Source: a virus (taxonomy: Duplodnaviria; Heunggongvirae; Uroviricota; Caudoviricetes). From it: a stretch of DNA of 64,000 nucleotides. Where the stretch lies: the IMG/VR virus record IMGVR_UViG_2609460125_000009. One strand, given 5' to 3'. Numbering within the stretch: the stretch's first letter is position 1; the number at the start of each line of letters is the position of its first letter. The notes beneath the pieces are model-generated. The model worked only from the letters and a program-made list of their open reading frames with translations, had not been told where the DNA came from and searched no databases. Of this stretch, positions 2-42,344 are shown piece after piece. Made by a program: the position numbers and the translations under genes.

Positions 2-301
2 ATCGAACAGAAAACTCTCGAAACTCGTCAGGTTGTCGAGTTTGAATTGTCCAGTGTGTTCGATTTGATGGGGGTGCAACTGCCGTATCGTCAGATCATT
101 AAAAACACCTGCCCGTGGAAATACCGAGGGCCAGAATGCGGCTATACCGGTCCATATTTCGACAAAAATAACCAGCAGACGTCTATGTCTGGTGCGGATT
201 ACTGCACAAAACGTTATGACGCCTGTAATGCGCGTCGGAATTATTTTGCCGACGGTGTGATCCATTTTGGCGGATTTATTGGAGCTACGCGGTATGGGTA
301 A
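2..301 (+). CDS. minor tail protein L-like, C-terminal part (5' end lies outside the window)
   Basis: Frame is open from the window edge to TAA at 299-301. Cys-rich C-terminus (TCPWKYRGPECGY...C...C) is typical of lambda gpL-like tail-tip proteins, and it is followed by K-, I- and J-like genes. Confidence 0.7.
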   Translation: MEQKTLETRQVVEFELSSVFDLMGVQLPYRQIIKNTCPWKYRGPECGYTGPYFDKNNQQTSMSGADYCTKRYDACNARRNYFADGVIHFGGFIGATRYG

Positions 302-1091
302 TAAAGCAATCCCTGAGCTTGGCTCTGACGTTATGCAGCAAATCTATCTCTGCGCCATAAATCGCTACCCTAATGAAGCGTGTGGCTTTCTGGTTAGAAC
401 TAATGGCGACAAATATCGCTTTATGGAAGCGCGGAATGTTTCGGAGAACCCGCAGAACACTTTTGTAATGCACGTTGACGACATTATGGCGGCAGAGGAT
501 GCGGGTGATGTTATCGCAATCTGGCATTCACATACTGATGAATCAGCAGAAGCATCTGATGCCGATCGTGCAGGCTGCGAAGCGACGGAAGTTCCGTGGA
601 TGATTCTGGCTATTCGCAAGAATGTTGAGGGAGATGCCCCTTTCCATTTTAGCGAGATGAATGTGATCACACCTGATGGTTTCGAAATGCCATACCTGGG
701 CAGACCGTATGTATTTGGCGTATTCGATTGCTGGATGTTGTGTCGGGACTATTTGAAGCGTGAGTTTAACGTCGAACTAAACCCGAACGCACACCTGCAT
801 ATTCCATCGTGGTACACCGGCGATAACGACATTCTCGATCAGAACTACCGTAACGAGGGATTGGTGCGTCTTGCGCCCGGAACAGAGCCTCAACGTGGGG
901 ACATCTTCTTTATCCAATACGGGAAAATGCCTGACCACTGCGCGGTTTATATCGGCGATGGAATGATTCTTCATCACCAGATCGACCGCCTAAGTTGTCG
1001 TGCTTATTACGGCGGGATGTATCAGAAACATACGACGCATCACTTGCGTCACAGAGACTTGCTCAAGGGAGATGAGACGTGTCTGAGTTAG
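294..1091 (+). CDS. tail assembly protein K-like (MPN/JAMM metalloprotease domain plus NlpC/P60 domain)
   Basis: ATG at 294 overlaps the stop of the upstream gene (ATGGGTAA). N-terminal HSHTD metal-binding motif; C-terminal Cys/His region (DCW...HCAVYIG...H) consistent with NlpC/P60; position between L-like and I-like genes. Confidence 0.8.
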   Translation: MGNKAIPELGSDVMQQIYLCAINRYPNEACGFLVRTNGDKYRFMEARNVSENPQNTFVMHVDDIMAAEDAGDVIAIWHSHTDESAEASDADRAGCEATEVPWMILAIRKNVEGDAPFHFSEMNVITPDGFEMPYLGRPYVFGVFDCWMLCRDYLKREFNVELNPNAHLHIPSWYTGDNDILDQNYRNEGLVRLAPGTEPQRGDIFFIQYGKMPDHCAVYIGDGMILHHQIDRLSCRAYYGGMYQKHTTHHLRHRDLLKGDETCLS

Positions 1092-1680: not shown

Positions 1681-4600
1681 TTGGACATGGAACAGTTCAA
1701 GAAGAAAAAATTACCGCTTCTTATTGCCGGTGCTGGTGGCAAGAAAAGTAAAAGCTCCAGCCGTACCCCGGTTGAAGCTGATGATACTGTCAATTCTCGT
1801 GCTATGGCAGCCATCCTCGACCTTCTTGGCGAGGGGGTTATCGGTGGCCTGGTAAATGGCGCAAAGTCGATCTTCATCGACGATTTACCGATCTTGAATG
1901 AAGATGGCTCTTCCAACTTCAGCGGTATTACATGGGATTTTCGTGACGGCTCACAAGATCAGACGCCAATGGCTGGTTTTGATTTTGTCGAAACGCCTAA
2001 GTCCGTAAATATTCAGCTTAAAAAAACACACGACGTTACGGTTTCAATCGATAACGATGAAGCTGATCGCGTTCGTGTCATCATGAAATTCCCCTCTTTA
2101 CGTAGCGTTGATAAAAGCTCTGGCGATACAAATGGCACTACGGTGAAGTACAAATTCCAGATCGCCAACGCAGACGCAACATTTTCTGATGTAGTGGCAG
2201 AAGGTGAGAAAAGCGTTGATATCACGCTAACGGCAAAGAAAACCGGCGTGTATTACCGTAGCTATGAGCTGAAACTGCCTAAGCCTGGTCGTGCATACAA
2301 GGTTAGGGTGATTCGTCTTACAGATGATAATAGTAGCCAGTACCTCTACAACGACACATGGGTTGATTCCATCGGTGAGATTGTCGACACGCCAATGAAC
2401 TACCCTAACTCTGCTCTTGTTGGCTTGAAGGTCAATTCAGAGCAGTTTGGTAGCACAATGCCTTCCCGTTCGTATTTGGTGCGCGGTATCAAAATCCGAG
2501 TACCGTCAAACTACAACGAATACACCAATACTTATGTCGGCGTATGGGACGGTACTTTTAAGCTGTTGTCTTCTTCAAACCCTGCGTGGATTCTCTACGA
2601 TTTGCTTACCAATACTCGGTATGGTCTTGGGCAATTTGTGTCGGAATCCATGATTGACCTCGGCCAGCTCTACCAGATTGGTCGATATTGTGACGAAGAG
2701 GTCGATGATGGCTTTGGGGGTAAAGAGAAACGCTTTGCAATCAATACGCAGATCACCAGTCGACAAGACGCATACCGATTAATTCAGGATATTGCCGGTG
2801 CATTCCGCGGCATGGTGTTTTGGGCTGGTGGCATGGTTAACATCATGCAGGATAGCCCATCAGATCCGGTAATGATGTTTACCAACTCCAACGTCAAAGA
2901 TGGACTGTTTACCTATAAAGGTTCTGCGCGTAAAGATCGCCCATCCGTTGCGCTCGTAACCTACAACAACAAGGAGGACGGTTATAAGCAAAACATCGAA
3001 TACGTTGAAGATCAGGACGCAATGCGCCGTTATGGTGAGCGTAAAACAGAAGTCGTAGCATTTGGATGTACAAGCCGAGGCCAGGCTCACCGAGTTGGTT
3101 TGTGGCTTTTGTATACCGCCAGAATGGAGTCGGATGTAATTACATTTACTGCCGGCTTAGACGCCTCATTTCTGATGCCTGGTGAAACCGTTCTGATTCA
3201 GAACAAATATCGTGCAGGTAAACGTAACTCCGGTCGAATTGTGGAGTTTACCAAAAACAGCATCACTCTCGATGCGCCTGTGTCGTTAGCTAAAAGTGGC
3301 AGCTTTATTCGGATATTGAATCAGGAAGGCAAAATCGTTGAACGCGATGTTCTTGAAACTGGCGAAAACATAACAAAGGTTACGTTTTCAAAAGCCCTGT
3401 CGTCAGCGGAAACGCCTGTTTTGAACGGTGTCTGGACAATTACAGAACCAGATCTCGAACCTATGCGCGTTCGCATCGTTAACATCGCGCAGGGGGAAAC
3501 GCCGGGTAGCTTTGACATCACCGCTGTTGAGAACAATCCGTCTAAATATGAGGCAATCGACAATGGCGCAACGCTGATCCCGCAGAATACGACGGTATTG
3601 GACCCAACTTACTCCAAGCCATCTAATCTGCAAATCACTGAAGGGACTTATCTCTCAAGCCCGGGCAACCTGTCAGTAAAACTGACTGCAACATGGGAAG
3701 GAAAATCTCCAGAGTATTGGATCAGTTGGCGACGTTCTGATGAAAACAATGTATCGAACTGGCAATCGGCGCGTGTAACCGAAGAGCAATACGAAATCGT
3801 TAATGTCGCGGAGAATGGACACTACGACTTCCAACTGTATGCGGTTTCATTCAACGGTAAAAAAACAGAGATTATCAGTACCGTTTATCAGGTGTTGGGC
3901 ACAATGACACCGCCGGATGCCCCAACGTCATTAACGGCCGTTGGAGACTATCGTAATGTGATACTGAATTGGGTTAATCCAGATTCGGTAGACCTTGATC
4001 ACATTAATGTTTACGCATCCCAGACCAACAATCTGGATACGGCGAAACTGATCGCAGAGTCTGCAAGCACCACCTTTACACATGCTGGTCTTGGGGATAG
4101 CGAAACGTGGTATTACTGGGTTCGAGCATCGAACAAGCGAGGTATGTTAAGCCCTCCGAACTCAAACTTGGGTACAGAGGCGACAACTCGCGATGTACTG
4201 TCGTTCCTGGCTGGCAAAATTACATCTTCCGAGCTTGGTCAGGCTCTGCTTGAGGACATCAACAGCAAAGCCTCTCAAGAAGCAGTTGACGAGTTAAATG
4301 AGCATATCAACCAGAGCGTCGAATCTTTGGAGGGGGCGGTAAACGACGTTAAGGAAGATATAGCTGAATTAGATAAGCAGTTCAGCGATAACCTCGCGGA
4401 TTTTGAAATAAAATTCAACGAGCGTAGCGATGCTTTGGAGAGCGCGCAAACCGAGCTTAAAGGTGAGGTTTCGGCAACGATCGACAAGGTCAATGAAGCG
4501 TTTGAAAAAATTGATGCTACTGATGCTGCAATTGTTGAAATCGAAAACACCGTATCTGAACACGATAAAGCTCTCGCTAATACAGTCGAGGCAATAAAGG

Positions 4601-35235: not shown

Positions 35236-35505
35236 GAATTATGGCGCTTGTTGAGGAAGTCACTCCTCTTACGCACTTTGTTTTGCCATGCCGGCAGTTA
35301 GCTTCTGCCTTTGACTATTCATGCGGCAACCCCGCATTTCGCCACAATGGGCAATTCACTTTTATGGAATAAACTGGCCGTTGTGTCGATTTAATTAGCA
35401 TGGCCTTACCATGCTAATTTATTCAACTTGTACAATCCTACAAATCTATCCACTCAGGCTTACACCGTCTTCGTTATTGTAGAAATGAGGATCATCAGCG
35501 TTGAA

Positions 35506-35721
35506 TCAGCTTAGAGCAACGACATTTGCTGCTGCTGGGCCTTTAGCCCCATTCTCGATAGAGAATTCGACCTGCTGGCCTTCTTCCAAAGTGCGGAAAT
35601 TATTACTCTGAATTGCCGAAAAATGTACAAAAACATCTTTACTGCCATCAGCAGGAGAAATAAAGCCAAAGCCTTTATCAGAGTTAAACCATTTTACTAA
35701 ACCAGTCATTTTATTAGACAT
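35506..35721 (-). CDS. cspA: cold-shock protein, CspA family
   Basis: [21 protein letters not shown]...DVFVHFSAI matches the cold-shock domain RNP motifs; ATG at 35721 has an AAGGT RBS, although the ORF is open further upstream. Confidence 0.85.
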
Positions 35722-36050
35722 AGATATTACCTTCTTAATTTTGTGAGCCACATAGTGCGGCGAGAATTTGATCTGTATAGATTGGGACTTACTTAGGCAC
35801 TTAAGGAGGAGACTCACGAAGAAGGGAAATCAGAAGATAACACTGAACTGAGACTGCTTTACTAAAACTGCTTACATAAGGTCTGTCTTGCAAACCAACG
35901 ATGCTATTAACGCATACCCCTTCTTTTCATGCAACCTTTATTTTTCAAAGATAACTAATTTTTGTCACCATTGGTTTAGTAAACGTTAACGAACCAGACG
36001 ATGCCAGACACCTTTACAGAGAACAGATGCCCGCCAATTGGCGGGCATCA

Positions 36051-38740: not shown

Positions 38741-39736
38741 GTGACCAGTAAGGCGTCTACGGACGCCTTACTTTTTGGAAGGAATGTACCGGTGAATTAT
38801 CTCTTCGTAGATGGCAATAGCCTGGGTTATTACCACCAACAATCTGACAAATTGCACAACGGCGAAATGGAAGTACAGGCTGCTTTCGGCTTTGTTAAGA
38901 ACGTCCGTCGTTATGCCTCCATCCTCCATGCCCGACCTATGATTCTTTGGGATGGATTTAGTGACAAGCGTCGCGACTTTTACCCGGACTACAAAGCAAA
39001 TCGCGACGACGATCCTGATATGAAAAAGATGAAGGAAGGCTTTGCTATCCAGAAGCCATACATCCTCAAAATGATGACCGCGCTTGGAGTTACCCAACTC
39101 ATTGCAAAAGATGCAGAAGCGGATGATCTGGCCGGGCTGCTGGTATCCCGCATGGCACCGCAGCCAACCGTTGAACACATCTATCTGTTAACAGGCGATA
39201 GCGACTGGCTTCAGTTAGTTCGTGAAAACGTAAGCTGGGTAAGCCTGCGTGAAGACGCCAAAAACAAGCAGGTTAATTTTGAGCAATTTGCGGAGCTGAC
39301 AGGATTCGCTACTCCTCGCGCATTTTTGGAAGCAAAAGCATTACAAGGCGATAAATCGGACAACATTAGCGGTGTTGGTGGCATTGGTGCTGGCGGTGCG
39401 AAAGAGCTGCTGCATGAATGGGGAAGTGTCGCAACGATGGTACGCGGCATCAACGACGGCTCAATCGTGGTTGACAAAGGACGCCATAAGACCGCCTTCA
39501 ACAAACTAGCGAAGAATGCCTTCAACGAGAAAACAGGCTGTCGAATGCTCGAAGCGTTCAAGAGAAACATCACGCTAATGAACCTGATTGAGACGAAGTT
39601 TCCGCCTACCGAAATCGAAACAATCAAAGGCAATCGTGACGTGAAAGCATTCGAGCAACTGTGCTACGAGCTGAATTTCCGTTCGTTCCTTGAAGACCTT
39701 GAAGTGTTTGTTCTTCCATTCGAAAGGTATTGCTAA
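38741..39736 (+). CDS. 5'-3' exonuclease / flap endonuclease (FEN family)
   Basis: Motifs FVDGNSL, AEADDLAG, LLTGDSDWLQLV and helix-3-turn-helix GVGGIGAGGAKELL. Confidence 0.85.
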   Translation: MTSKASTDALLFGRNVPVNYLFVDGNSLGYYHQQSDKLHNGEMEVQAAFGFVKNVRRYASILHARPMILWDGFSDKRRDFYPDYKANRDDDPDMKKMKEGFAIQKPYILKMMTALGVTQLIAKDAEADDLAGLLVSRMAPQPTVEHIYLLTGDSDWLQLVRENVSWVSLREDAKNKQVNFEQFAELTGFATPRAFLEAKALQGDKSDNISGVGGIGAGGAKELLHEWGSVATMVRGINDGSIVVDKGRHKTAFNKLAKNAFNEKTGCRMLEAFKRNITLMNLIETKFPPTEIETIKGNRDVKAFEQLCYELNFRSFLEDLEVFVLPFERYC

Positions 39737-40002
39737 TGCTTAAATCGATTATTAATGGCGCTACAACCACCCCCACCCAACTGGCAAAAGAGATTGTCTT
39801 TTATCACGGTGAGTACGCTGTCATCGCACTGCCGTCAATTCTAGGCGCTGCCGGAATGAAAGCGACAGATCGCGAGTTTGGATTAGTCAGCGAGCAGGTC
39901 GTAAAAATCCTCGCTCGTGTATCCAGACTCCTTAACCACGATGCGATTGTATTCGACGAATCCGCCGCTTTAAAACGAATCAACGAAACAAAAGGAGCCT
40001 GA
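39736..40002 (+). CDS. hypothetical protein
   Basis: ATG overlaps the FEN stop (TAATG); 88 aa. Confidence 0.4.
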   Translation: MLKSIINGATTTPTQLAKEIVFYHGEYAVIALPSILGAAGMKATDREFGLVSEQVVKILARVSRLLNHDAIVFDESAALKRINETKGA

Positions 40003-40004
40003 TC

Positions 40005-42344
40005 ATGGCAAAAGGAAAATCCGCACTGGCACTTGCTCTGAAAAAGAAAATCGGTAGCAACGACGAAATTCAGAAAGTAACTCATTGGATTGACACAGGC
40101 TTTCCTCCGTTAAACAAAGCTATTTCCGGTCGTTACGATGGCGGTTTCCCATGTGGTCGTATCGTAGAAGTATTCGGGCCACCAAGCGCGGGGAAATGTG
40201 TTACCGCAGACACCATGCTGCTGACGGAGCGTGGAATGGTAACAGTGAAAGAGTTGTTTGAGATTGAAGGGTACAAAGCGACATGCACTACTCGCGATGT
40301 AGAGCATAACGTTGGACTCATCAATGAAAATGGCGTGATAGAGAAGACCTCACACCTGACATGGAACAACCGTCGCAAATTCAAGCGTATTAAGCTGGCA
40401 TCAGGCGGTTATATCGAGGCTACGTTCCGTCACCCAATCCGTGTGGTTGACGACTTAGGTAATGTCGTCTGGCGACATGCTGAAAAAATCAGTGTAGGCG
40501 ACACGATTCCTTCAATGGTTGGCACACATCAATTCGGCGATCAGCACCTGGATGCCAATATCGCAAAACTGATGGGCTATTTAATTGCTGACGGATACGT
40601 GGCCTCTGAAAATTCAGTGAATTTTTCTAACACAGATCCTTTCATCAAGGATGAGTACTACCGCCTCATTTCGCTGGTATCAGACAAGATGCCAGTTACG
40701 AGAAAACATAACGGCTCGGAAGACCATGTGCTGTTTAGCAAAGAGGTGCGTTCGCTGCTTTTTAAAGAATATGGTCTGGAGTATGAGAAAGCTGCTGGCA
40801 AGCAGGTTCCGTTGAGTGTGCGTCGCGCCAATAGCGAGGCTCAAATTGCATTCCTTCGCGGCTACTTTGAGCTGGAATGCCACGTCAATGATGGTCGCTG
40901 CATTGAGGTTGTGAGCGCGAGTGGGCTGCTGCTACAGCAAATTCGCCTCATGCTCCTGAATCTGGGGATTACGTCAACTATCTCTGAAAAACACGTCGCG
41001 GGTTATGAAAATACATATTACCGGCTGTCATTCAGTGGCTCTAATTACGACCTTTTTCTGTCAACGATTGGTTTCGAATCTCCGGCACGTTTATCAGTGG
41101 CAACCAAACGGGACATTGGTTTTGACCGCACTTACTCAGGCTATGTTCCGCACATCAGCGGCTTAGTGAAATCACTCTACGAGTCGCTCACCAAGACCAC
41201 CCGTGAAGACTACGCTCTGGTAGACCACGTTATTGGCCGCGGCGATCGTGTCGGAATAGACAAACTGCGAGAAATCTATGTCTCCTTCATTGGCAGAAAG
41301 AATCGTTTTAACGAGCATCTGTTTGCACAACTGGCAGCGGTAATTGGCTCTAACTTGTTCTACGACGAAGTCGTGGCTATTGAGGAAGGTGAAGCACCAA
41401 CGTTCGACGTAGCGATGCCGGAAACACACTCTTTCTGGTCTAACGGGATTATCAGCCACAACACATTCCTTGCAACAGCAGCGATGATCTCCGCTCAAAA
41501 ACAAGATGGTCTGGCGGTATTCCTCGATCATGAAAACAGTTTTGACGTTGGCCTGGCTGTAGCCAATGGCCTGAACGCAGATGAGGATGACGGTCAGTGG
41601 GTATACAAGCAGCCAGATACCTTCGAAGACTCTGTAGAGTTGATCGGCACAATACTTAAATTGGTTCGTGATGAAGAGCTTATCCCCGAATCAGCACCTA
41701 TCTGTATCGTGGCTGACTCTCTTGCGTCTATGGTTCCGAACTCCAAAGCCGAGAAGTTCGAAAAGATGGCTGAAGGCACAGCCAAAGACAAAGATCAGCT
41801 AAACATGAACGACAATACGGCACTGGCTCGTGCGACGAGTGCGAACTTCCCTACTCTGGCTTTGTGGGCACGCAAATACAACGCCTGCATCATCTTCTTG
41901 AATCAGGTTCGCACAAAAATCGGTGTAATGTTTGGCGACCCTACTACGTCGCCAGGTGGAGATTCACCGAAGTTCTACGCTTCTGTACGTATCCGTCTTG
42001 GTGCATCGGTGATGAAGGATGGTAAAGAGAAGATCGGCCAGGACGTAGGCGCAGAATGCATCAAAAACAAAGTTGCACCACCGTATGGCAAATGCACCTG
42101 GAAATTCTACTTCGATCCTACTCGTGGCCTCGACGTTATCGAGTCGCTCGTCGAGTACATGCTGGAAGAAGGATACCTGCCAAAGAACGCCAGCGGTCGA
42201 GTAGAAATTGGTGACAAGAAATACACCAAATCACAGATCGTCGAGATGTATCGGGAGAAGCCACTAGCTGAAATCATTGCGGCTTTACAGGCAATCGACG
42301 ACCGGAGATCAAAAGACAATCCCACCGAGTCAGTAGAAGAGTAA
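40005..42344 (+). CDS. RecA-family recombinase precursor containing an intein in the Walker A motif
   Basis: N-extein ends GPPSAGK, C-extein begins TFLATAA, so splicing restores GPPSAGKTFLA; the C-extein carries RecA-like core motifs. Confidence 0.85.
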   Translation: MAKGKSALALALKKKIGSNDEIQKVTHWIDTGFPPLNKAISGRYDGGFPCGRIVEVFGPPSAGKCVTADTMLLTERGMVTVKELFEIEGYKATCTTRDVEHNVGLINENGVIEKTSHLTWNNRRKFKRIKLASGGYIEATFRHPIRVVDDLGNVVWRHAEKISVGDTIPSMVGTHQFGDQHLDANIAKLMGYLIADGYVASENSVNFSNTDPFIKDEYYRLISLVSDKMPVTRKHNGSEDHVLFSKEVRSLLFKEYGLEYEKAAGKQVPLSVRRANSEAQIAFLRGYFELECHVNDGRCIEVVSASGLLLQQIRLMLLNLGITSTISEKHVAGYENTYYRLSFSGSNYDLFLSTIGFESPARLSVATKRDIGFDRTYSGYVPHISGLVKSLYESLTKTTREDYALVDHVIGRGDRVGIDKLREIYVSFIGRKNRFNEHLFAQLAAVIGSNLFYDEVVAIEEGEAPTFDVAMPETHSFWSNGIISHNTFLATAAMISAQKQDGLAVFLDHENSFDVGLAVANGLNADEDDGQWVYKQPDTFEDSVELIGTILKLVRDEELIPESAPICIVADSLASMVPNSKAEKFEKMAEGTAKDKDQLNMNDNTALARATSANFPTLALWARKYNACIIFLNQVRTKIGVMFGDPTTSPGGDSPKFYASVRIRLGASVMKDGKEKIGQDVGAECIKNKVAPPYGKCTWKFYFDPTRGLDVIESLVEYMLEEGYLPKNASGRVEIGDKKYTKSQIVEMYREKPLAEIIAALQAIDDRRSKDNPTESVEE
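40197..41462 (+). mobile_element. intein with LAGLIDADG homing-endonuclease domain (422 aa) inside the recombinase gene
   Basis: Begins with Cys (CVTADTMLL, intein block A), ends with His-Asn before the extein Thr; internal LMGYLIADGY and FLRGYFELE motifs. Confidence 0.8.

Follow-up and report, generated by a model that had tools for sequence, protein, structure and literature searches.

A LAGLIDADG intein interrupting the P-loop of a RecA-family recombinase in SSU5/pLF82-like phage-plasmids

The RecA-family recombinase gene of an SSU5/pLF82-like phage-plasmid, located at positions 40005-42344 of the 64,000-nucleotide stretch of Caudoviricetes DNA analysed here (IMG/VR record IMGVR_UViG_2609460125_000009; the whole stretch is referred to as the window), is interrupted within the sequence encoding its ATP-binding loop. 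The insert is very probably a class-1 intein with a two-motif LAGLIDADG homing endonuclease, which lies between Lys64 and the Thr of the Walker A motif and is homing among SSU5/pLF82-like phage-plasmids. An earlier note on this DNA had described a LAGLIDADG intein that splits the recombinase P-loop as GPPSAGK/T (the slash, here and below, marks the insertion point). Domain searches, which place RecA, Intein_splicing and LAGLIDADG_3 above their gathering thresholds, together with intein-free alleles, which set the boundaries, confirm that observation and support its structural interpretation. That the precursor splices, and that an active endonuclease is the agent of spread, we infer.

Architecture of the precursor

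The match of the 779-residue open reading frame (ORF) to three Pfam families (RecA, E=3.4e-36; LAGLIDADG_3, E=2.4e-17; Intein_splicing, E=2.1e-11) is far beyond chance. In precursor numbering the insert opens with Cys65 at nucleotide (nt) 40197 and closes with His485-Asn486 at nt 41462, after which comes Thr487, which is the arrangement of Cys start, His-Asn end and following Thr that had been read in the earlier note (Table 1). The computed lengths agree with its further remark that the intein (422 amino acids (aa), 47.5 kDa) is larger than the recombinase that it interrupts (357 aa and 39.0 kDa when spliced). Its estimates of about 39 and 47 kDa for the two products also hold, while the 85 kDa proposed for the precursor should be 86.6 kDa. 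The predicted spliced product has the junction peptide ...GPPSAGKTFLATAAM... and reads GPPSAGKT across the join, the same as the empty alleles. A foreign origin of the intein was sought in its base composition with no sign found, its G+C content (48.2%) being like that of the exteins (46.9% and 49.0%) and of the window (46.3%). An Rfam scan found neither introns nor RNA elements of other kinds within the recombinase gene or close to it.

In the established nomenclature intein blocks are defined by an N-terminal Cys or Ser, Thr-x-x-His in block B, Asp/His in block F, a C-terminal His-Asn, and a Cys, Ser or Thr at position +1. The present insert contains the full splicing set, comprising Cys1, Thr76-x-x-His79, Asp404, His411, His421-Asn422 and Thr+1 (intein numbering), with blocks F-G conserved in the family alignment as PTFDVxMPETHSFWSNGxISHN. 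The Intein_splicing model PF14890 scores 44.3 bits against a threshold of 35.8 and spans precursor residues 73-486, and the NCBIfam model TIGR01445 (intein_Nterm) scores 35.5 against a cut-off of 24.5. As a word-indexed search of a large protein collection gave 13 matches, too few for a deep alignment, the structure of the intein was predicted with AlphaFold2 from an alignment of 12 sequences, yielding a model with a predicted local distance difference test score (pLDDT) of 79.5 and a predicted template modelling score of 0.84. The best Foldseek matches of this model in the PDB are intein-homing endonucleases, namely TliVMA (7qss; E 7e-19, query-normalized template modelling score 0.68), PI-PfuI (1dq3; E 1.7e-16), PI-PkoII (2cw7; E 5.6e-16) and PI-SceI, followed by many mini-inteins. 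The Hint fold is supported by further matches to mini-intein and Hedgehog Hint structures. By anatomy, curated models and predicted fold, the insert thus appears to be a class-1 intein.

For the endonuclease part the LAGLIDADG_3 model (PF14528) scores 63.4 bits against 22.5 over precursor residues 279-356, and the fold matches are to PI-PfuI, PI-PkoII, PI-SceI and I-DmoI.

Table 1. Features of the interrupted recombinase gene in window coordinates, and nucleotide sequences of the insertion site in different alleles
Feature	Position	Strand	Basis
Precursor ORF, 779 aa + stop: N-extein, intein and C-extein of a RecA-family (UvsX-like) recombinase	40005..42344	+	ORF list, Pfam RecA, PHROGs
N-extein, 64 aa, ends with the first part of Walker A	40005..40196	+	Contiguous with C-extein in empty alleles L001 and L004
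GPPSAGK, first part of Walker A (aa 58-64)	40176-40196	+	Translation
Upstream half of the shared flank, GCGGGGAAA: presumed co-converted tract or part of the endonuclease target	40188..40196	+	Allele comparison
Intein, 422 aa, 47.5 kDa: LAGLIDADG endonuclease domain set within a Hint splicing domain and followed by a helical region	40197..41462	+	Domain models, structure model, allele comparison
Splicing block A, CVTADTMLLT; Cys1 nucleophile at 40197-40199	40197..40226	+	Translation, motif reading
Splicing block B, GGYIEATFRHPIRV; Thr76-x-x-His79 (intein numbering)	40404..40445	+	Sequence reading against intein block nomenclature
First LAGLIDADG motif, LMGYLIADG, with Asp132 as its acidic residue (position 8)	40569..40595	+	Alignment with GYLIADG in the TliVMA intein (7qsu/7qss)
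Second LAGLIDADG motif, LRGYFELEC, with Glu227 as its acidic residue (position 8)	40854..40880	+	LAGLIDADG_3 match; alignment with FLEGYFIGDG in PI-PkoII
Helical region after the endonuclease core	Intein aa ~284-385		Predicted model
Splicing blocks F (PTFDVAMPETHSF) and G (NGIISHN); terminal His421-Asn422 at 41457-41462	41397..41462	+	Sequence; family alignment
C-extein, 293 aa + stop; Thr+1 (41463-41465) completes Walker A (GKT)	41463..42344	+	Translation; alignment to solved RecA structures
Downstream half of the shared flank, ACATTCCT	41463..41470	+	Allele comparison
Walker B-like ICIVADSLASM	41700-41732	+	C-extein sequence
FLNQVR	41895-41912	+	C-extein sequence
CMS-2020a empty site, ...GCAGGGAAA/ACGTTCCT..., given also as GTCCTCCAAGTGCAGGGAAA/ACGTTCCTTGCA
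SSU5 empty site, GCCGGTAAA/ACCTTTTTGGCA
Klebsiella-type empty site, GCTGGTAAA/ACCTTCCTGGCG
Healed site (intein removed from an occupied allele), GCGGGGAAA/ACATTCCT, given also as GCGGGGAAA/ACATTCCTTGCA

The host recombinase

The RecA model PF00154 matches the protein with 125.5 bits against a cut-off of 27, in two stretches that flank the insert, and the C-extein aligns to solved RecA chains with E-values down to 1e-27 (single-copy chains). The bacterial RecA equivalog model TIGR02012 scores 132.5 bits, below its cut-off of 325.3, and in PHROGs the exteins match the UvsX-like recombinase family phrog_97; thus the host protein is a phage RecA-like recombinase and not an orthologue of cellular RecA. 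The score far under the TIGR02012 cut-off rules out equivalence to bacterial RecA. Equivalence to the mycobacterial-type intein-containing RecA (NF007072) was likewise discarded, as its model reaches 100.8 against 1024, with the best stretch on the C-extein (aa 484-691), and its insertion site is a different one. A second family, phrog_9666, covers residues 1-779 of 779, indicating that the protein is already present in public phage data.

The exteins are strongly constrained, with a ratio of replacement to silent substitution rates (dN/dS) of 0.01-0.02, which together with the undisrupted frames of occupied alleles lends splicing indirect support. It could be argued, nevertheless, that the insert does not splice and that the gene is a dead or re-purposed recombinase, in effect a free LAGLIDADG endonuclease residing in a pseudogene. 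Under the NCBI annotation pipeline PGAP most of the copies indeed bear the name 'LAGLIDADG family homing endonuclease' or 'hint domain-containing protein'. In addition, one copy is tolerated with an IS1-like insertion in the intein (see below), so that plasmid maintenance may not depend on the recombinase. The insert is, however, in frame with boundaries that match the empty site exactly, and in each of the occupied alleles that were examined all of the splicing residues are preserved. All nine E. coli-type occupied alleles, moreover, retain the complete 779-codon frame, and their variable extein codons comprise 37 silent changes and one replacement. With frames and splicing residues intact, the pseudogene explanation is highly improbable and was rejected.

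Occupied and empty alleles

Comparison with intein-free alleles, proposed in the earlier note, was possible with many sequences, so that the refuting condition set there, a lack of such related alleles, does not apply. Phage CMS-2020a, whose neighbouring genes are 99% identical to those of the window, has an uninterrupted gene of 357 aa and SSU5 one of 358 aa, and both read ...GPPSAGK/TFLATAAM... contiguously; in Cyrano, Klebsiella phage p4727 and an Enterobacter plasmid the gene is interrupted at this very codon boundary by an insert of 422 aa. Thus, the boundaries are exact to the codon and are set by comparison as well as by motif. The allele set, which consists of 80 IMG/VR loci from a scan with the spliced protein plus reference loci, contains 64 empty alleles (62 IMG/VR loci together with L001 and L004), 20 occupied alleles besides the window and one that is truncated. 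All 21 occupied alleles, the window included, have an intein of 422 aa at the same codon.

Among plasmids in PLSDB the locus is present in 735 and the intein in 248. By genus the intein accompanies the locus in 123/231 Escherichia, 71/273 Klebsiella, 41/85 Enterobacter and 1/40 Salmonella records, and none of the 63 Yersinia records with the locus is among the intein matches. Complete E. coli genomes contain the locus in 251 of 5,426 cases, always on plasmids, and 114 of these 251 have the occupied form. The earlier note regarded inteins as uncommon in phage recombinases. This is reasonable for sequenced phages, where the present intein family, the only one surveyed, lies in the recombinase in only four phage-collection records (three SSU5-like phages and Bacillus phage fHSPT3), but not for the SSU5-type element family, in which a third to half of the copies carry the intein. 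Its description of the gene as a homing hot-spot was overstated; a single site in the gene is used, and this position, with the Lys of Walker A on one side and the Thr on the other, is the generic 'classic' point of intein insertion in P-loop ATPases (PMC5050341).

The names given to the gene in RefSeq vary ('LAGLIDADG family homing endonuclease', 'hint domain-containing protein' and 'recombinase RecA'), and Enterobacter copies are labelled 'intein-containing recombinase RecA' by the NCBI pipeline. The first of these names, found on most RefSeq copies, hides the recombinase of the element. One E. coli plasmid copy (CP059946.1, 60573-63217) has a 771-bp insertion inside the intein, at intein nt ~424-431 (window ~40620-40627), with an 8-nt target duplication. 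From its terminal repeats and an InsA-like ORF we take this insertion to resemble IS1; no gene is annotated there in the CP059946.1 record. Partial intein DNA, 96-98% identical, occurs in two further plasmids from E. coli, NZ_CP075717.1 (162 kb; 46% of the intein length) and CP057895.1 (70 kb; 19%), and these copies may be remnants or rearranged elements.

Signatures of horizontal spread and co-conversion

The intein of the window is 96.8-97.0% identical to those of Klebsiella and Enterobacter elements, while in the same pairs identity falls to 80-86% in the N-extein, 83-84% in the C-extein, 80-83% in the exonuclease gene and 72-76% in the small upstream ORF. Silent divergence (dS) is 0.09 in the intein and ranges from 1.0 to saturated in the exteins of these pairs. 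This mismatch indicates that the common ancestor of the inteins is more than tenfold younger than that of the host genes.

The sequence that flanks the insertion point tells a similar story. The silent-site core GCGGGGAAA/ACATTCCT (GCG GGG AAA / ACA TTC CT) is present in 21/21 occupied alleles, whatever their background, and in 0/64 empty alleles, which vary at the same wobble positions. When the near-identical CMS-2020a allele, which is empty, is taken as the reference, 19 differences are found upstream, and 9 of them lie in the last 103 nt before the junction. In the E. coli-type lineage (9 occupied and 22 empty alleles) the two classes are told apart by sites -103, -91, -7 and +3. Two occupied loci retain the local empty-type sequence up to -10, which points to separate insertion events with very short co-converted tracts. 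Taken together, the divergence mismatch and the shared flank indicate recent horizontal spread with co-conversion, that is, homing; at the level of sequence these would be the expected marks of gene conversion initiated by an endonuclease.

Several points weigh against this interpretation. The occupied alleles fall in only about three to four backgrounds, so that the 21/21 identity of the flank reflects few independent events, and ordinary homologous recombination between co-resident elements, without cleavage, would yield similar patterns. The second LAGLIDADG motif, LRGYFELEC, has Cys and not the usual Gly at position 9, and endonuclease activity is thus not readable from sequence alone. The last 15 C-terminal residues of the intein model, with its alignment of 12 sequences, have a pLDDT below 50, and the constraint on the exteins may be largely older than the arrival of the intein.

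These considerations lead to an alternative in which the intein splices but its endonuclease is dead, the distribution being the product of vertical descent and of general homologous recombination during co-residence or co-infection, mediated by the phage-plasmid's own recombination genes. Ordinary recombination does act here, as one recombinant locus shows a single crossover inside the intein, and the atypical Cys of the second motif is in keeping with a loss of activity. The acidic residues at both catalytic positions, Asp132 and Glu227, are, however, retained. The dN/dS of the endonuclease region (~0.2), although based on small counts (15-17 silent versus 10-11 replacement changes) that leave the alternative some room, argues that the region is still under selection. 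Furthermore, recombination within flanks of 80-86% identity would be inefficient, yet the intein has crossed between diverged lineages with tracts as short as ~10 nt, which is what repair of a double-strand break at the site produces. A dead endonuclease is thus an unlikely account, and homing remains the preferred explanation.

The recombinant locus (IMGVR_UViG_2576861193_000004) follows the E. coli type through its N-extein and as far as intein nt ~280, and the Enterobacter type in the remaining intein and C-extein, with the crossover in intein nt 280-352; the intein thus acts as a patch of homology between diverged lineages. In the truncated allele (IMGVR_UViG_2724678972_000008) the recombinase gene ends ~9 nt upstream of the insertion point (~nt 2500-2515); ~2 kb upstream, the locus also contains sequence that resembles the tRNA region of the window (24.3-25.2 kb). 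The proximity of this breakpoint to the presumed cleavage site could reflect a misrepaired cut, in what is a single case. One IMG/VR empty allele, GAAGTATTCGGGCCACCAAGCGCGGGGAAA/ACGTTCCTTGCA (core GCGGGGAAA/ACGTTCC), combines an occupied-type upstream flank with an empty-type downstream flank, and may represent a footprint left when an intein was lost or by recombination or, alternatively, a target that is fully susceptible.

A model for splicing and homing

In the model that we propose, the 86.6-kDa precursor would be translated with its ATP-binding loop interrupted and, as a consequence, would be inactive as a recombinase. An N-S acyl shift at Cys1, followed by attack of Thr+1, would generate a branched intermediate from which cyclization of Asn422 frees the intein, the products being a 39-kDa recombinase with an intact GPPSAGKT loop and the free 47.5-kDa intein. 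In a cell where an element with the intein encounters a relative that lacks it, the free intein would cut the uninterrupted P-loop coding sequence, and repair from the occupied copy would install the intein together with a few flanking bases.

It is also conceivable, albeit quite improbable, that the intein is more than a parasite, either because conditional splicing switches the recombinase on or, in a related proposal, because the endonuclease and the conserved intein create a recombination hotspot. By analogy, a splicing gate might respond to redox state, through Cys1 and nearby cysteines (intein Cys30 and extein Cys50), or to DNA damage; conditional splicing has likewise been proposed for archaeal RadA and mycobacterial RecA and DnaB inteins. 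If splicing were conditional, the recombination activity of the phage-plasmid would be turned on post-translationally at induction. If the hotspot proposal were correct, the intein would drive mosaicism between diverged, clinically relevant phage-plasmid lineages, as in the crossover described above.

It should be emphasized that the intein is in itself ordinary and that its site is of the most typical kind; it is common in its plasmid family and of modest interest as such. Its value is as a natural, genetically tractable system, with an apparently active intein in phage-plasmids of E. coli, Klebsiella and Enterobacter. The ratio of occupied to empty copies, from ~1:2 to 1:1, and the evidence for repeated recent transfer across lineages make the homing cycle of invasion, spread, decay and loss testable in E. 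coli. No description of this intein was found in the searchable literature on SSU5-type phage-plasmids and related plasmids, the joint mentions inspected being unrelated references, and nothing relevant in that on inteins in UvsX. Among the passages listed from the Cyrano/LF82 paper, none remarks on the recombinase gene (PMC9928086). The intein of the SSU5 family thus seems not to have been written up previously, though it is partly recognized by automated annotation.

Relation to known inteins

A survey of inteins recorded 56 in bacterial RecA and 9 in RadA (PMC4760082). The archaeal RadA inteins of Pyrococcus horikoshii and Thermococcus sibiricus likewise occupy the P-loop of a RecA-family recombinase ATPase domain (PMC5790916), and structures of the P. 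horikoshii RadA intein (4e2t and 4e2u) match the Hint domain of the present model. In contrast to the present intein they are mini-inteins without an endonuclease domain (PMC5790916), archaeal and chromosomal, and the similarity in sequence is marginal (E 0.1). Temperature-dependent conditional splicing has been demonstrated for these archaeal inteins. The Mycobacterium tuberculosis RecA intein (PI-MtuI), the founding RecA intein, is also of the LAGLIDADG type in a bacterial-type RecA (PMC5050341, PMC4760082). It resides, however, at another site, as its N-extein was cloned as a 771-bp product of ~250 residues, far from Walker A (PMC11377839), and its fold match to the present intein is confined to the splicing domain.

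RecA inteins at the same P-loop site share the pattern G-x4-GK/C...HN/[TS] and, where coverage is substantial, 28-45% identity with the present intein. They comprise that of Bacillus phage fHSPT3 (33% identical, E 3e-54) and six others (P0004, P0006, P0007, P0012, P0013 and L089), two of which, P0007 and P0013, look endonuclease-degenerate or size-reduced when the sequences are inspected by eye. These inteins differ in their hosts, which are a Herelleviridae phage, Anaerolineae and other bacteria known from metagenomes or metagenome-assembled genomes (MAGs), and none is close enough to be a recent donor. Close relatives of fHSPT3 match only the extein parts of its precursor, and the fHSPT3 intein is thus also polymorphic. 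In the large protein collection all matches (27-45% identical) besides the partial E. coli copies have a RecA-family context, in the form of a RecA Pfam domain or a similar type of Walker A/extein flank, and those that bear a junction are all at the same site. A scan of species-representative genomes used one peptide pattern from the endonuclease domain and recovered mostly distant inteins in other host genes, with RecA hosts in 2 of 80 loci; it is thus unusable as a census of RecA P-loop inteins.

Outside recombinases, the mycobacteriophage TerL1-a intein and the helicase inteins of Twort-like phages are inserted after the invariant Lys of Walker A and before its nucleophilic Thr (PMC5050341). 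The Twort-like inteins are 31-34% identical to the present intein over the full length and the classic P-loop set as a whole 20-34%, although the host proteins are different. More distant relatives interrupt GK/T or GK/S in apparent AAA+/FtsH, PhoH, RuvB, MutS and RecD-type ATPases, these hosts being judged from the flanking peptides alone. The predicted model of the present intein has the same two-domain architecture of Hint and LAGLIDADG as the solved TliVMA, PI-PfuI, PI-PkoII and PI-SceI, and the motifs align, but these four are 10-21% identical to it in sequence and interrupt other genes.

Two further irregularities were noticed. In the Anaerolineae MAG contig DAOTTO010000406.1 (L089), where the P-loop of a bacterial RecA is interrupted at the same site by an intein of 45% identity, the RecA alignment contains a second gap of ~159 codons near residue ~228 (locus nt ~3183-3661), which is possibly a second (mini) intein. 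In Bacillus phages BSP36 and BSP38 the RecA region matches the fHSPT3 precursor in two pieces, annotated as 'putative RecA' and 'hypothetical protein', which suggests that the recombinase gene is interrupted or split differently.

The element and its gene neighbourhood

The region is 99.7% identical to E. coli plasmid pEcoFMU073332c and 96.7% identical to Escherichia phages PhiR41_1 and Cyrano, the latter being the pLF82 phage-plasmid of E. coli LF82. Cyrano makes virions, which have been measured (PMC9928086), and PhiR41_1 is recorded with a K-12 host; the intein-bearing elements are thus viable phages. SSU5-like elements with resistance genes have also been described (PMC9600943, PMC3999498). 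The recombinase gene lies in an SSU5-like replication and recombination module together with genes for DnaE, a gp32-like single-stranded DNA-binding protein, a 5'-3' exonuclease, an SPFH protein, RepA and NrdAB.

Four tRNA genes are clustered on the plus strand at window positions 24295-24992 (Asn-GTT, Tyr-GTA, Thr-TGT and Ser-TGA). On the minus strand, 35481-35899 is a full-length match to the Rfam cspA thermoregulator (185.7 bits against 78), and a cspG cold-shock gene is annotated in the corresponding region of the 99.7%-identical plasmid, which indicates that a cold-shock gene, accompanied by its RNA thermosensor, is part of the element. The 90-codon ORF between the exonuclease and recombinase genes (39730-40002, plus strand) is the most divergent gene of the module across lineages, with 72-77% nucleotide identity against 80-86% for its neighbours.

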